Positions 15,479 through 44,143 of a DNA stretch of 64,000 nt are shown one piece after another. Positions within the stretch are counted from its first letter, which is position 1; every line of letters begins with the position of its first letter. The stretch covers positions 169,929 through 233,928 of the forward strand of contig CAZQKK010000001.1 in the NCBI GenBank assembly GCA_964593885.1, read 5' to 3'. Both the position numbers and the translations under genes were made by a program. The notes under the pieces are model-generated. The model did no database searches. It was not told the origin of the DNA and saw only the letters and a program-made list of their open reading frames with translations. This stretch comes from an uncultured Candidatus Saccharibacteria bacterium. GTDB taxonomy: Bacteria; Patescibacteriota; UBA1384; CAILIB01.

Positions 15479-15553
15479 GGCAGGGTAGCTCAGGGGTAGA
15501 GCAGGAGACTCATAAGCTCTTGGTCGCGGGTTCAATTCCCGCCCCTGCCACCA
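15479..15553 (+). tRNA. tRNA with CAT anticodon, closest by eye to tRNA-Ile2 (lysidine, k2CAU) rather than elongator Met
   Basis: 75-nt cloverleaf: acceptor GGCAGGG/CCCTGCC, T-arm GCGGG-TTCAATT-CCCGC, anticodon loop CTCATAA, 3' CCA encoded. Anticodon arm and body are nearly identical to the E. coli ileX pattern (GAGCAGGNGACTCATAA...TTGGTCGC). Confidence 0.8.
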
Positions 15554-15590: not shown

Positions 15591-15634
15591 GCGCTAAAGA
15601 GGAAGGGAATTGAACGAGGAAAGGGTCGGAAAAC

Positions 15635-16105
15635 CTACGCTGCTGCAAGCTGCTGTCTCACCCGCCGGTGCTGCTCTCGCTCATGCAGCTTCTCTAGCTG
15701 GTAGCGCTCCAGGTGTTCACCACCAGGCATATCCTTGCTCACCTCAACACCATCGCCGCCTTTTTCAAGTGAGTGGTAGGAAATAATCATCGCTCCTACC
15801 CAGAATGGGTTCTGGAGAAGGGTGAGAAACTGAGAGCTCACACTCCCACCAAGCGTTTGTTGGAGTGCCTGGAGTTTCTCAGCACTCAAGACCCCCTGCT
15901 TCCCACTTGCTAGACCAGTGAGCACCACGTCCTCTTGGTTGCGCGCTTCTGTCTCGCTCTCATTCCAGGCATCAACCATCTTGAGAAAGTCCTTTCGCCA
16001 GGAGAGGTATTCTTCAAGAGGATCAGTCTCAGCTTCTTGGTAGTACGGCTCAGGCTCCGCGGCTGATTCGTATCGCTCTACAGAAAGCGTAAGGAACTCA
16101 CTCAC
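15635..16105 (-). CDS. hypothetical acidic protein
   Basis: ORF of 156 aa with no recognisable motifs. It is terminated by the bidirectional terminator. Confidence 0.4.
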   Translation of the reverse strand: MSEFLTLSVERYESAAEPEPYYQEAETDPLEEYLSWRKDFLKMVDAWNESETEARNQEDVVLTGLASGKQGVLSAEKLQALQQTLGGSVSSQFLTLLQNPFWVGAMIISYHSLEKGGDGVEVSKDMPGGEHLERYQLEKLHEREQHRRVRQQLAAA

Positions 16106-17812: not shown

Positions 17813-19126
17813 CTACTTGAGCGAAAGTACCTCAGCCCTCGCCATGAAATCAATGATGGCAGGGTCAACGATAATGTGACGCGGACTGATAGGAGACTTG
17901 AGGTAGAGCCCCTCTAGGGTGGTACACCTACTGAGTGCCACGTACGTTTGCCCGTGGGCGAAGGCACCCTGACTGAGGTCTACAAACACCGCCTCGTACG
18001 TTTTCCCCTGAGACTTGTGCACGGTAATTGCCCAGGCGAGCCGCATGGGAACTTGGGTAAATGAGCTTGCCACATCTGCCTCAATAGTTTCATCTTCACG
18101 GTTGTACGAGTACCTCACCGTCTCCCAGGTTTCCCTGGGGATGAGGTGTTTTTTGCCATCAATGGTAACACCAACCTCGGTGTCGTTGAGCGCTGTAACC
18201 ACCCCAATTGAACCGTTCACCCAACGCTTCTCACGGTCATTCTTGAGGAGCATCACCTGAGATCCAACCTTGAGCTGGAGCACCGCCTCGGTGGGAAAGG
18301 CACTCTCCTGGAGAGCACCGGTTACCTTTGCGGTGTAGGTTTTGTGTTCCCCATGGAGGAGATTGAGCTTCTCGTGGTTGGTGCGCGAGACCACCGCGTT
18401 AGTACCGGCCAAGGTGACAAAGCTATCCTCAGGGAGCGGGACCCCCACCCGGGTGTTGAGCGTTTCGATAATCTCTTCGGTGATATCACCCTTCCTAATG
18501 GCGTTGAGAATGCGCCTGAAAGCTTCATCTTTCTGACGGAACATCGTGTTGAGCTCAAAGATACGAAGGTCTAGCCTCCGACAAGCCGGGGCATTAAAGA
18601 AGTAGATCCCCTCGTAGGTTTCGTAGAGGTACTGCGAAAGCGACTGATCAGTGACAATGGGAGGAAGCTGGTAGAGGTCGCCAAAGAAAATCATCTGCAC
18701 CCCACCAAACGGGAGGTGGGAGCCCCGGGCTAGCTGGAGCTTCCAGCTAATTGCCTCCATGAGGTCGGCGCGCACCATGGAAACCTCATCGATCACCACC
18801 ACATCTACATTCTTGAGGAGAGTACGAGTCTTATCATCTACCGTGATGTCTGCTTGGCGAAGAAGCGTAGGTGCCAGCTTGAAGAATGAGTGAATGGTTT
18901 GGCCACCAACGTTCATCGCAGCAACACCGGTTGGAGCAACTACCACCGTACGCTTCTTGGTTGTAGCGATGAAGTACTGGAGGAGGAGCGATTTCCCCGT
19001 CCCTGCTTTTCCGGTGATGAACATGGAGTCATTACCCTCTTCAATGTACTCAAGTACCTTCCGCTGCTCATCACTGAGTGTTACGTTGGTGAGGTCTGTG
19101 CTGGATGATGCTCTTCGTTTTGCCAC
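17813..19126 (-). CDS. Pif1/RecD-like superfamily-1 DNA helicase
   Basis: Walker A GKAGTGKS, Walker B VVIDEVSM, and C-terminal motif TVHKSQG. A 437-aa compact Pif1-type architecture. Confidence 0.8.
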   Translation of the reverse strand: MAKRRASSSTDLTNVTLSDEQRKVLEYIEEGNDSMFITGKAGTGKSLLLQYFIATTKKRTVVVAPTGVAAMNVGGQTIHSFFKLAPTLLRQADITVDDKTRTLLKNVDVVVIDEVSMVRADLMEAISWKLQLARGSHLPFGGVQMIFFGDLYQLPPIVTDQSLSQYLYETYEGIYFFNAPACRRLDLRIFELNTMFRQKDEAFRRILNAIRKGDITEEIIETLNTRVGVPLPEDSFVTLAGTNAVVSRTNHEKLNLLHGEHKTYTAKVTGALQESAFPTEAVLQLKVGSQVMLLKNDREKRWVNGSIGVVTALNDTEVGVTIDGKKHLIPRETWETVRYSYNREDETIEADVASSFTQVPMRLAWAITVHKSQGKTYEAVFVDLSQGAFAHGQTYVALSRCTTLEGLYLKSPISPRHIIVDPAIIDFMARAEVLSLK

Positions 19127-19235
19127 GGTATTTTCGGTACTTGTACGGTACTACCCACGTTACACTGTTTTACCGTGGATACGTAGGGGTTGGGAGTTGA
19201 ACGTCAGGATGTCCTCAGCGTAAAGCTTCGGAACA

Positions 19236-19345
19236 TCCTTCCTCGGAAACCCACGGTTTCCGACGGCTGCAAGCAGCCTGCTTTCCTCCACGGGAAAACT
19301 TCCGTTTTCCCGGCCCCTTTCCTGTTCAAATCCTGCCCTCTTTGT
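19236..19345. other. conserved structured element, copy A (hairpins ggaaacc-cac-ggtttcc, ggctg-caag-cagcc, cgggaaaac-N4-gttttcccg, then gcccctttc)
   Basis: Shares core blocks with 29134-29210, and compensatory stem changes are visible. It lies between the helicase start and the tRNA-fMet terminator. Confidence 0.4.
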
Positions 19346-19350
19346 AGTCA

Positions 19351-19387
19351 AAACAAAAGGACCATCAGCCGATGGTCCTTTTGTTTT
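19351..19387. terminator. bidirectional intrinsic terminator
   Basis: aaaaggaccatc-agcc-gatggtcctttt with flanking A-tract and T-tract. Confidence 0.55.
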
Positions 19388-19463
19388 GGTAGCGGGGGTT
19401 GGATTTGAACCAACGACCTTCTGGTTATGAGCCAGACGAGCTTCCAGGCTGCTCTACCCCGCA
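19387..19463 (-). tRNA. tRNA-Met(CAT), initiator-like (fMet)
   Basis: 77 nt. Nearly colinear with E. coli tRNA-fMet (GCGGGGT.GAGCAGCCTGG.AGCTCGTC.GGCTCATAACC.GAAGGTCGT.GGTTCAAATCC...CCCCGC.ACCA). Position 1:72 is unpaired (U:U). Anticodon loop CTCATAA. Confidence 0.8.
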
Positions 19464-29020: not shown

Positions 29021-29063
29021 ATGTAACCAGTGTACGGGTTTTTGGGGCAAAGAGACAAGACAA

Positions 29064-29118
29064 CTAAAAAAGACAGTCACTGACTGTCTCTTTTAGTTGG
29101 TGGGTCCACTGGGACTCT
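29064..29118. repeat. direct repeat copy 1: terminator hairpin plus 19-nt tRNA-Lys 3'-end fragment
   Basis: aaaaaagacagtcactgactgtctctttt..ttggtgggtccactgggactc is identical to 29234-29288 except for two compensatory positions in the extended stem. Confidence 0.65.
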
Positions 29119-29233
29119 CCGTCGCTTCGCTCCCAGAGAACCCACGGTTCTCTGCGCTCGCAAGCTCGCTACTCTCCTACACGGGAAAACACTGTTTTCC
29201 CGACCCCTTTCACTTTCGAGTCCCAGTCTAGTC
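29119..29233. other. conserved structured element, copy B
   Basis: agagaacc-cac-ggttctct, gcaagc block, cgggaaaac-N3-gttttcccg, acccctttc. Same order and spacing as copy A. Confidence 0.4.
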
Positions 29234-29269
29234 AAAGAAAAAAGACAGTCACTGACTGTCTCTTTTCTT
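29234..29269. terminator. bidirectional terminator (direct repeat copy 2) adjacent to tRNA-Lys
   Basis: caaagaaaaaagacagtca-c-tgactgtctcttttctttg, a near-perfect 19-bp stem. Confidence 0.55.
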
Positions 29270-29344
29270 TGGTGGGTCCACTGGGACTCGAACCCAGAAC
29301 CAATGGCTTAAAAGGCCACTGCTCTACCATTGAGCTATAGACCC
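29270..29344 (-). tRNA. tRNA-Lys(TTT)
   Basis: 75 nt: acceptor GGGTCTA/TGGACCC, anticodon loop CTTTTAA, T-arm CTGGG-TTCGAGT-CCCAG, CCA encoded. Confidence 0.85.
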
Positions 29345-43483: not shown

Positions 43484-44143
43484 CTAGTTAAAGAAACCTG
43501 AGTACTTTCCATCCGAGGTACTTTTCTTGTAGCTAGCAATTTTTGCACCTGAAAGAGTAAACAGCCTACGCCTCATGGTCTCAACTCCCTCTGAGGTAAC
43601 TGTTTCATCTACGGTTATGTTGGTTGAGGTTGCACTCACCAACGTCACCTTTGTGATGGTGAAGGTTACCGAGGCACTCTGGAAGAGTGTTGGCCCGCCA
43701 GGGATACCTTGCAGGTCTTTCCCATCCTTGAGGAGGCTCAGGAGCTCTCTCTCATCGTTTGTAGCAGGGGCGGTAAACTGCTGAAAGATGAGTTCAACGT
43801 TTTGCTGTCTGTAGGCACTATAGAAAGTAGTAACCACCGCTGGAAGCTCAGCCGAAACGCTGGCACTAGGAGTTGGGGTTGGTGTTGATATGGGAGTAGC
43901 GGAAGGACTGGGAGTTGGGCTACTAGAGGGCGTAGACGAAACTACGGGGGTTGGGGTTGGTGTTGATGTGGGAGTACCACCAAAGCTTCCTTTAGTTACA
44001 ACCAGTGTAAGTGAAGCCACCGCTAGGAAGCAGATAACATAGGCTGAAATGGGCACGAGTTGCCGAGAATGGTGGCGCATCTGAAAGAATTGGAAGGTTA
44101 AACAGCTTACCTCTATGGTACACAAATCTGTGAGCTTTGCCAT
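43484..44143 (-). CDS. hypothetical membrane-anchored protein with T/P/S-rich linker
   Basis: TM followed by a TPTSTPTPTP linker and a C-terminal domain. Confidence 0.4.
   Translation of the reverse strand: MAKLTDLCTIEVSCLTFQFFQMRHHSRQLVPISAYVICFLAVASLTLVVTKGSFGGTPTSTPTPTPVVSSTPSSSPTPSPSATPISTPTPTPSASVSAELPAVVTTFYSAYRQQNVELIFQQFTAPATNDERELLSLLKDGKDLQGIPGGPTLFQSASVTFTITKVTLVSATSTNITVDETVTSEGVETMRRRLFTLSGAKIASYKKSTSDGKYSGFFN

Follow-up and report, generated by a model that had tools for sequence, protein, structure and literature searches.

An uncatalogued family of structured elements at the ends of tRNA and other conserved genes in Patescibacteria, with possible mobility

The DNA analysed here is a window of 64,000 nucleotides (nt) from an uncultured Candidatus Saccharibacteria bacterium (assembly GCA_964593885.1, contig CAZQKK010000001.1, positions 169,929 to 233,928 of the forward strand). 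Its genes include FtsH, MurJ, LepA, DnaK/DnaJ and a PIF1-like helicase, which mark the window as bacterial chromosome. It contains two copies, A and B, of a short element with a conserved, folded core, located on the minus strand downstream of the genes for tRNA-fMet and tRNA-Lys respectively, and a truncated stump (copy C) on the plus strand behind tRNA-Met. An element or a stump is thus present behind three of the window's four tRNA genes. An initial annotation, made from the letters of the window, had pointed to two look-alike elements at the positions of A and B, and this is confirmed by reading, by alignment and by a search with R1, a covariance model built from homologues. The repeat search of the window aligns A and B with 75% identity over 52 nt, and their cores are 79% identical across 85 nt. 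They are the only full-length matches of R1 in the window; the next match has E=0.56, and copy C is not called. The copies fold with z-scores of −3.4 to −4.8, on either strand. The features are itemized below, in the order in which they are met along each strand.

Copy A:
19387–19463, minus: tRNA-fMet (CAT), intact, with copy A behind it (ARAGORN; Rfam tRNA 62.2 bits)
19350–19386, minus: terminator-like hairpin T1 in the spacer between tRNA-fMet and copy A (from the sequence; aligns with the copy B hairpin)
19182–19333, minus: copy A, whole element, downstream of tRNA-fMet
19324–19333, minus: 5′ arm GGAUUUGAAC, the reverse complement of the tRNA-fMet T-loop region GUUCAAAUCC (positions 53–62)
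19239–19323, minus: core (R1 78.5 bits, E=2e-20; RNA fold z=−3.5), with J1/2 AGGAAAGGGGC, P2 at 19291–19312, J2/3 UGGAGGAAAG and P3 at 19244–19262
about 19263–19290, minus: optional hairpin GGCUGC-UU-GCAGCC in J2/3
19207–19238, minus: extra hairpin of the variable P4 region, GGAUGUUCC...GGACAUCC (by folding)
19182–19202, minus: 3′ arm, a degenerate direct copy of the tRNA-fMet 3′ end (GUUCAACUCCCAACCCCUACG versus GUUCAAAUCCAACCCCCGCUA)

Copy B:
29270–29344, minus: tRNA-Lys (UUU), intact, with copy B behind it (ARAGORN; Rfam tRNA 76.9 bits)
29234–29269, minus: tRNA-Lys terminator T1 (hairpin 29243–29261), within the first copy of a direct repeat (29225–29289)
29098–29227, minus: copy B, whole element, downstream of tRNA-Lys
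29215–29227, minus: 5′ arm ACUGGGACUCGAA, the exact reverse complement of tRNA-Lys positions 54–66 (UUCGAGUCCCAGU)
29130–29213, minus: core (R1 70.4 bits, E=4e-18; RNA fold z=−3.4, with a 10-bp P1), with J1/2 GUGAAAGGGGU, P2 at 29182–29202, J2/3 UGUAGGAGAG and P3 at 29134–29154; optional hairpin degenerate
29118–29133, minus: 3′ linker GGAGCGAAGCGACGGA with a GCGAAGC mini-hairpin
29098–29117, minus: 3′ arm, an exact direct copy of the tRNA-Lys 3′ end GAGUCCCAGUGGACCCACCA (positions 57–76), paired with the 5′ arm (P1)
29053–29097, minus: second terminator T2, the rest of the second copy of the direct repeat (repeat search; terminator scan 29099–29061)

Copy C:
15604–15634, plus: truncated stump behind tRNA-Met (15479–15553, plus) and its terminator (from the sequence)

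Leaving the tRNA-fMet gene, the minus strand passes through T1, in which an A-tract, a hairpin and a T-tract follow one another; it is terminator-like in both directions, and a simple terminator scan did not call it. The two arms of copy A form a closing stem P1 of only 6 bp (UUGAAC/GUUCAA), and the P4 region is occupied by variable hairpins at the same position in other copies. Past the T-loop the arm (AAAGAGGGCAGGAUUUGAAC, 19324–19345, minus) mismatches tRNA-fMet and would suit a tRNA with the T-stem CCUGC, which suggests that it may have been inherited from a copy at another tRNA. An AAAGAGG motif upstream of the arm is common to copy A and stump C. The PIF1-like helicase gene (17813–19126, minus; Pfam PIF1, E=1e-32) lies directly downstream of copy A, and no tie between such a gene and the element was found in other loci.

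At copy B the tRNA-Lys 3′ end and its terminator are present twice, in a 65-nt direct repeat (29053–29117 / 29225–29289) that is 89% identical. The outer stems of T1 and T2 differ by a compensatory change, AG..CU becoming CU..AG, so both terminators look functional; the pair is analogous to the constrained second copy at protein genes described below. The 3′ linker of B is common to loci L073, L091, L092 and L099, with a GCGGAGC variant in L123. Copy C starts with the 5′ arm AGGGAAUUGAAC, antisense to the tRNA-Met T-loop, and then GAGGAAAGGGUCGGAAAAC; it retains the antisense arm, the GGAAAGGG junction and only half of P2, and abuts the stop codon and 3′ end of a minus-strand open reading frame (ORF; 15635–16105). 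The extent of about 100 nt originally given for the element was too short, as a 5′ arm (19324–19333 in A, 29215–29227 in B) and a 3′ arm belong to it.

An exact pattern taken from the P2 hairpin, GGGAAAACN{3,6}GUUUUCCCGUG, was scanned over species-representative genomes and gave at least 120 loci. Among the matches listed, about 100 of 124 have the complete junction GAAAGGGGUC. The junction-bearing lineages are Saccharibacteria, Parcubacteria/Paceibacteria (Nomura-, Kaiser-, Jorgensen-, Colwell-, Taylor-, Morani- and Nealsonbacteria), Microgenomates, Berkelbacteria, Kazan and WS2, while the remaining pattern matches (Rhodobacterales, Verrucomicrobia and others) are palindromes alone and lack the junction. 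R1 also reaches divergent copies beyond the exact pattern. Among its listed matches are 111 full-length copies in 100 loci, nearly all from Patescibacteria. The covariance-model search proposed by the initial annotation has therefore clearly disposed of the possibility that no further copies occur anywhere.

The proposed comparison with Rfam returned no family for the element. At the gathering threshold of Rfam 15, which covers riboswitches, T-box, transfer-messenger RNA (tmRNA), RNase P, 6S, SRP, 5S, self-cleaving ribozymes, introns and HEARO/omega RNAs, tRNAs alone pass in the whole window. Two 360–430-nt regions containing the copies gave only sub-threshold chance matches at E≤10, for example to the ylbH leader (23.5 bits, with a threshold of 50) and to a variety of miRNA models; 18 further loci gave only tRNAs and one tmRNA elsewhere. 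Three patterns found zero matches in viral contigs, BLAST of phage genomes and plasmids gave no match, and no description of the element was found in the literature searched. The elements are thus a previously uncatalogued family, 110–200 nt long and protein-less, found in this survey almost only in Patescibacteria (the candidate phyla radiation, CPR). Among the exact-pattern matches, the Rhodobacterales loci (L026, L027, L037, L044 and L085, from Roseicyclus and others) contain clusters of GGGAAAAC-N4-GUUUUCCC-type palindromes adjoining similar CGAAAAAC/GUUUUUCG palindromes. These alphaproteobacterial clusters look like a different, unrelated repeat family.

The core is built from GGAAAGGGGUC, the 9-bp hairpin P2, GUGGAGGAA and the 8–11-bp hairpin P3, in that order, and is predicted to form a three- or four-way junction. 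Read along the tRNA-sense strand, the consensus starts with the 5′ arm and continues through rGG-AAAGGGGUC (rGGAAAGGGGUC) into P2 (CGGGAAAAC / GUUUUCCCG). From the 3′ end of P2 the strand forms UG-gA-GGAAg (GUGgAGGAAg) and an optional hairpin, often with a GCGAAGC-type loop, before passing into P3, where nnnnAACC pairs with GGUUnnnn across a GUG or GNRA-like loop and insertions of 30–60 nt are tolerated at the tip. The last part comprises variable hairpins (often GCGAAGC), often (A)GUGAGAU, the 3′ arm and usually the element's own terminator. In many copies 5′-UCGAAC and GUGAGA-3′ would form a helix holding a tandem G.A motif. The initial annotation had divided the element into four blocks. 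The first, a hairpin, is P3 (19244–19262 in A, 29134–29154 in B), and its compensatory differences between A and B are backed by more than 80 homologues; the covariation was rightly read as a sign of selection on structure. The third, a long hairpin, is P2 (19291–19312 and 29182–29202), and the fourth is the conserved junction GAAAGGGGYC. The second, centred on gcaagc, is not a shared block. It is the loop of the optional hairpin, which folds in A and is degenerate in B, and the GCUUGC motif is absent from the other copies aligned.

In the R1-based alignment 92.4% of the cells are paired, and 14 of the 17 pairs have changes on both sides. None of 500 shuffled controls reaches any of these measures, and slid partners pair in only 44–66%. 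P2 has the compensatory variants GGAGGGAAC/GUUCCCUCC, GGGGAGAU/AUCUCUCC and GGGAGACC/GGUCUCCC, and contains G.U pairs and no A.C pairs. P3 covaries richly in its outer half, with 12 G.U pairs, and its loops are GUG, GAG, GCAA, GAAA and GUGA. The presence of G.U without A.C pairs, together with the GNRA-like loops, indicates that the folded strand is the tRNA-sense strand, i.e. the minus strand of the window. The stem P1 is copy-specific; its duplex energy averages −20.7 kcal/mol with the copy's own partner against −16.5 kcal/mol with swapped partners (p=5e-12). RNAalifold applied to a MAFFT alignment of full elements recovers P2 alone, because the arms and inserts misalign, and P1 and P3 were analysed with custom scripts. 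A core both conserved and covarying implies that selection acts on the folded RNA (or single-stranded DNA), and mobile introns are likewise conserved as their folded form.

Several known RNAs and motifs were considered for the core and rejected. RNase P CR-I (GAGGAAAG), the tmRNA 5′ region (GGAUUCGAC) and 5S loop E (GAGAGUAG) have no support from Rfam scores or helix order, and the same is true of the hammerhead, the hairpin ribozyme, box C/D and the integron attC site (RYYYAAC). Two variants of the layout were observed. In L011 (447–700, plus) an insert of about 100 nt between P2 and P3 holds a second, P3-less core-like unit, with the motif GUGAGU-C-UUCGAAC, in which the 3′-end motif directly precedes the 5′-end motif; it could be a nested insertion or a permutation resembling a circle junction. 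In a sub-class comprising L004/L022, L019, L033, L061 and L106 the tRNA-derived arms are replaced by conserved domains of the element's own, GUCUCCCUU..GGGAGUACCCGU plus a hairpin at the 5′ end and GCAAAUCU.AUUUGC-GACGGGGGAGGG at the 3′ end. The copies in L033 and L061 lie among restriction-modification, Fic and Bro-N/PDDEXK genes.

A role as a shared 5′ leader, riboswitch or operator for the minus-strand genes downstream, namely the PIF1-like helicase and a protein with 14 transmembrane segments, had been proposed from the window, and both copies do lie some 60–115 nt upstream of a minus-strand ORF. A complete copy of the terminator (29061–29099) nevertheless stands between B and the gene of the 14-segment protein. 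Over the 111 copies the downstream genes are unrelated and what stays constant is the tRNA or gene end on the upstream side, so the element has no constant place upstream of a regulated class of genes; no Rfam riboswitch or T-box matches it. Covariation that includes G.U pairs speaks for a folded single strand rather than a duplex operator. A recent local duplication as the source of the A–B similarity is excluded by the copies in other genomes. We therefore give almost no credence to an explanation by a leader, an operator or a local duplication.

Within the loci, 65 of 161 tRNA genes have a same-strand copy at most 150 nt downstream, with 18 amino-acid specificities represented, and 48 of the 111 copies have no called tRNA upstream. 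The initial annotation was right to place the copies beside tRNA 3′ ends. It had the tRNAs on the opposite strand, convergent with the element; the G.U pairs and GNRA-type loops of the minus strand place the element on the same strand as the tRNAs, downstream of each tRNA and its terminator. The end of the antisense 5′ arm lies opposite tRNA position 53 (G53) in 39 of 57 copies, as does the inner end of the arm in copy A, while its outer end lies between positions 59 and 79. The direct copy at the 3′ side starts at tRNA position 53, 57 or 60 and is 8–112 nt long. The antisense arm tracks the T-loop variant of the adjoining tRNA, so that arm sequences differ by site: ACUCGAA at tRNA-Lys, AUUUGAA at tRNA-fMet, AAUUGAA at tRNA-Met, and coding sequence at typA and rplO. 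The 5′ and 3′ arms pair as the closing stem P1, which at tRNA sites would imitate the acceptor/T-arm helix.

The repeated tRNA end is well preserved. In 47 of 62 copies the pseudo-3′ end has no more than one mismatch over 10 nt of the acceptor strand, with unrelated trailers, and in L002, L017, L018, L080 and L082 the repeat spans the entire trailer at 12/12 identity. CCA is absent from both gene and repeat in 35 of 47 cases and is present in the repeat only in five. The repeat must therefore come from the gene or its primary transcript, and mature tRNA was rejected as the template of the 3′ arm. The spacer between tRNA and element is only 12–25 nt in many loci, and no promoter-like site of the element's own was found; together these suggest co-transcription with the tRNA. 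Some copies lie directly upstream of a tRNA or tmRNA gene (L056, L066, L088 and L092; the copy in L056, 30–330 plus, precedes the tmRNA gene), and one, in L110 (5810–5881, minus), is in the intergenic region just upstream of rpoA.

At non-tRNA sites the copies have the same layout, i.e. a sense copy of the gene end, an antisense arm, the core and a second sense copy. The 5′ ends targeted belong to typA, lepA and EF-G, and there the element runs antisense to the gene; the 3′ ends targeted belong to rplO, to an rpmG-like and a UVR-domain gene, and to one further gene. At eight protein-gene sites there are 55 differences in 357 nt between the two copies of the gene end. Read in the true frame, the changed codons comprise 42 synonymous and 5 non-synonymous changes, where 20% synonymous is expected neutrally (p=2e-24), and four of the five non-synonymous changes are at the junction codon. 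The synonymous changes include swaps between CGC and AGA (arginine) and between the stop codons TGA and TAG. The similarity of the copies, which are 16–26% diverged, stops at the start or stop codon, and the antisense arm matches the adjacent live gene and not the second copy. Differences so biased towards synonymous positions mean that the second copy is not a target-site duplication decaying in place, and the simple target-site-duplication model is rejected. The second copy is a differently evolved, coding-constrained allele of the gene end. At the GTPase sites (L013, 6372–6533 minus; L003, L006, L047 and L104) it keeps the start codon and about 10 codons (M-D/E-I-R-N-I-A-I-I-A) and opens an ORF of about 50 codons that continues across the element's reverse complement. 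The junction codon changes from His to Pro in L003, L013 and L047, in typA and lepA-like genes.

This result bears directly on a SINE-like origin (short interspersed nuclear element), in which a retroposon would enter by target-primed reverse transcription from a nick opposite T-loop position 52/53 and the repeat would be a target-site duplication. Such a mechanism fits the fixed inner junction with a variable outer junction and repeat length (8–112 nt), the structured sense RNA, the dependence on a strong upstream promoter and the whole-trailer repeats at 12/12 identity. The repeats at protein genes, however, are 16–26% apart by changes that are nearly all synonymous, whereas the two copies left by a target-site duplication would be identical at first and then decay at random. 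The elements lack a common 3′ tail, A-rich or otherwise, no reverse transcriptase was found in the flanks, the stumps are truncated at the 3′ and not the 5′ end, and the antisense arm requires an extra snap-back step. Eukaryotic SINEs and tRNA-targeted retrotransposons (Dictyostelium TRE and yeast Ty3) do share with the element its non-autonomy, the use of a host promoter, tRNA genes as safe landing sites and flanking repeats of variable length. They are driven by reverse transcriptase and their duplications are fresh; here no such enzyme or tail was seen, and the repeats are allelic. A retroposon of this kind is improbable.

The allelic second copy would be expected of an incoming replacement gene end, and the elements might be degenerate attachment-site scars of integrase-driven islands or prophages, with the repeats as attL and attR and the core as the arm region of attP. 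Integrative elements that target tRNA genes, and their integrase-less, cis-mobilisable remnants, use tRNA 3′ ends or the 5′ or 3′ ends of protein genes, leave the gene intact by supplying a replacement end, and show imperfect direct repeats, allelic-looking differences and tandem accretion. SXT, for example, uses the translational GTPase gene prfC, integrating at its 5′ end and bringing a new N-terminus. The insert here is likewise flanked by direct repeats of the target end, with the intact gene end always restored, at tRNA and protein-gene sites alike. Against this, an attP normally serves a single site, while one core is found here at 18 or more tRNA specificities and at typA, lepA, EF-G, rplO, the rpmG-like and the UVR-domain genes. 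Intact copies are only 110–200 nt long with a uniform layout and no genes, no integrase recurs in the 8-kb flanks, and the phage and viral collections searched gave no match. Covariation with G.U pairs and GNRA-like loops belongs to a folded single strand and not to duplex protein sites, and the antisense copy, which is always present, has no counterpart in att sites. We judge an origin as attachment-site scars improbable.

Other mobile elements share parts of the anatomy. Bacterial MITEs (miniature transposable elements with inverted repeats), such as Correia/NEMIS, ERIC, RUP, BOX and REP/REPIN, are also short, non-coding, multi-copy, intergenic and able to fold as RNA, and the element can further be likened to them in that they are co-transcribed with their neighbours, with RNase processing possible. 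Their terminal inverted repeats are borne by the element and identical between copies, whereas here they are derived from the target and different at each site. Their target duplications are short and fixed (2–10 bp) against allelic repeats of 8–112 nt, and they are conserved within one genus, unlike a core that extends across a superphylum. Mobile introns are abundant in the CPR and are structured RNAs whose conservation serves their own propagation, which home to conserved sites, tolerate wobble positions and carry a guide segment complementary to the exon beside the junction. The 5′ arm, antisense from the junction, is P10-like in this respect, yet it also pairs with its own 3′ arm. A group I intron would interrupt a gene with a P1–P10 core of at least about 200 nt. 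The element has two conserved hairpins in a core of about 70–110 nt, too small for the catalytic core of a group I or II intron; it lies outside an intact gene beside a complete tRNA, carries a duplicate gene end and has no Rfam intron match. Its antisense orientation at the GTPase sites means that splicing cannot be the rationale. The group I introns of CPR tRNAs lie in the anticodon loop at position 35/36 (PMC13011429); the site is unrelated, and identity with them was rejected. The scaffolds of guide RNAs (TnpB/IscB omega RNA, IS110 bridge RNA and retron ncRNA) resemble the element functionally only, in having a conserved core with segments matching the target on both strands; no cognate nuclease, recombinase or reverse transcriptase gene recurs beside the copies. 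TIGR-Tas arrays consist of 36-nt repeats and are unrelated (PMC12045711).

A metagenome scan with the 3′ end of the tRNA-Lys of the window gave filled and empty sites:

L123: tRNA-Lys identical to that of the window, element downstream
L129: tRNA-Lys identical to that of the window, element downstream
L130: tRNA-Lys identical to that of the window, no element downstream
L132: tRNA-Lys different at one nucleotide, no element downstream

The three filled sites (the window, L123 and L129) have different trailers, repeats of 65, 16 and 9 nt and cores that are 67–74% identical, with several compensatory pair differences in P2 and P3. The identity of A with B (79%) exceeds that of B with the copies at the same tRNA in L123 and L129. 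Tandem arrays are seen or implied in L002, L018, L080 and L092, and truncated stumps are present as copy C and in L123. In the latter a second stump (about 1100–1180, minus) comes after the terminator behind the tRNA-Lys element. This stump has an arm in antisense to another tRNA's entire 3′ end, CCA included (UGGUGUGCAACAGAGGGGGCUCGAAC), and no matching tRNA gene is adjacent. The three copies in L109 are only 54–57% identical and keep P2 and P3. Clustering of neighbouring genes in search of a partner protein returned translational GTPases alone, which are targets and not partners.

We interpret the family as a non-autonomous, structured-RNA insertion element that spreads horizontally and settles at conserved gene ends without breaking the genes, a reading that we consider about evenly poised between right and wrong. 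The argument for a mobile element rather than a fixed host feature is the patchy occupancy, the empty sites behind identical tRNAs, the arrays and the stumps, together with targets that are diverse and have only extreme conservation in common, the lack of a consistent downstream gene and the allelic second copy. Of the possibilities raised by the initial annotation, the core of a miniature tRNA-targeting mobile element is accordingly the one favoured, given also the 18 tRNA specificities, tRNA-Lys genes with and without the element, and the non-tRNA targets. The element would be selfish as well as non-autonomous and mobile. It appears to occupy the ends of genes for tRNAs, translational GTPases and ribosomal proteins without inactivating them, because the complete gene end is always kept.

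The same data can be read as a host-beneficial family of small RNA genes whose products would have a closing helix resembling that of a tRNA and would act in cis or in trans, as mimics or decoys of tRNA ends or as antisense regulators. Such an RNA would depend on the tRNA transcription unit for its expression and would be maintained by selection at every site, its mobility being ancient or incidental. The covarying structure is compatible with this, and with the small RNA suggested by the initial annotation, and core sequence and structure are strongly conserved across the entire superphylum. Divergent copies within one genome keep P2 and P3, as in L109, the copies behind identical tRNA-Lys genes differ by compensatory changes, and 47 of 62 pseudo-3′ ends are preserved in spite of unrelated trailers. 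At typA, lepA and EF-G the element-sense RNA would be antisense to the start of the mRNA. RNAs derived from tRNA units have precedents in the 3′ external-spacer RNA of E. coli leuZ and in plant tRNA-snoRNA dicistrons, which are processed by RNase Z. With these, and with mascRNA-type ends and tmRNA, the element shares a position directly downstream of a tRNA, a closing helix like the acceptor/T-arm with its discriminator (and CCA in some copies), and a helix that would be a putative substrate of RNase P, RNase Z or RNase III. The precedents are single host genes, however, and the present family has many copies, arms matched to the target and sites outside tRNA genes. Its occupancy of tRNAs is patchy (65 of 161), with empty sites behind identical tRNA-Lys; there are tandem arrays and stumps; the targets are unrelated, being tRNAs, GTPase 5′ ends in antisense and ribosomal-protein 3′ ends; and the arms of copy A have decayed, leaving a P1 of 6 bp. 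The allelic second copy needs DNA of other ancestry, for which a purely vertical host gene does not account. A host small RNA is possible and, on this balance, rather doubtful.

For a mobile insertion element, the course of events may be as follows. The element would be transcribed by read-through from the tRNA promoter, and P1 would be a processing stem, cut by RNase P/Z or RNase III. The copies of the gene end would be homology or guide segments that steer integration at a fixed boundary, most likely through a nucleic-acid intermediate. The fixed inner boundary, the variable outer boundary and an arm templated by the resident gene suggest synthesis up to a break at the boundary and then snap-back, where copying on the resident gene would yield the antisense arm. 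The allelic second copy suggests that the gene-end segment travels with the element, serving either for homology or guidance or, as in integrative elements, as a replacement end.

A bolder proposal, which we put forward tentatively, is that the family constitutes a new class of self-guided RNA mobile element. Its anatomy fits none of the known mobile-element or RNA families compared here. The core might then be a small ribozyme or a protein-binding RNA, and the sense and antisense arms would recognise both strands of the target. Insertion would take place at the edge of the matched segment, with a complete gene end supplied or preserved, and the element, with no gene of its own, could spread horizontally over the Patescibacteria superphylum. 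Divergence at synonymous sites only would reflect selection to keep matching the invariant target positions in any host.

Several observations weigh against a mobile, guided element. A second copy at 16–26% divergence would pair poorly as a guide, and the antisense arm in L003 fits the second copy at only about half of the positions. In A and B a terminator separates tRNA from element, so that expression there needs read-through. Among 20 same-genome pairs there is no general excess of similarity (p=0.23), and thus nothing points to recent bursts; host selection on each copy would explain equally well why divergent copies keep their structure. The sites compared include no filled/empty strain pair in the same flanks. 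Truncated copies keep their 5′ end, the opposite of the 5′ truncation of LINE-type retrotransposons, and no reverse transcriptase, transposase or recombinase/integrase recurs in the 8-kb flanks of the 100 loci.

Elsewhere in the window, two 30-nt G/T-rich repeats (GGRGTTGGGGTTGGTGTTGATRTGGGAGTA) lie 78 nt apart at 43869–43976 on the plus strand.

If confirmed, the elements would be a widespread RNA family of the CPR superphylum, numbering hundreds of copies, supported by covariation and missing from Rfam. Their layout of gene end, antisense copy, structured core and allelic sense copy is produced by no mobile-element type compared here, and the core is usable as a sequence marker for CPR contigs. 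In the reduced genomes of the CPR, a protein-less element at up to three of four tRNA genes per 64 kb needs explaining. It would be either a very successful parasite, possibly with RNA-guided integration chemistry, or a domesticated, tRNA-linked regulator. In either case the family bears on the exchange of DNA within the CPR, on the tolerance of many RNA elements there, and on nucleic-acid-guided insertion without a nuclease gene in cis.

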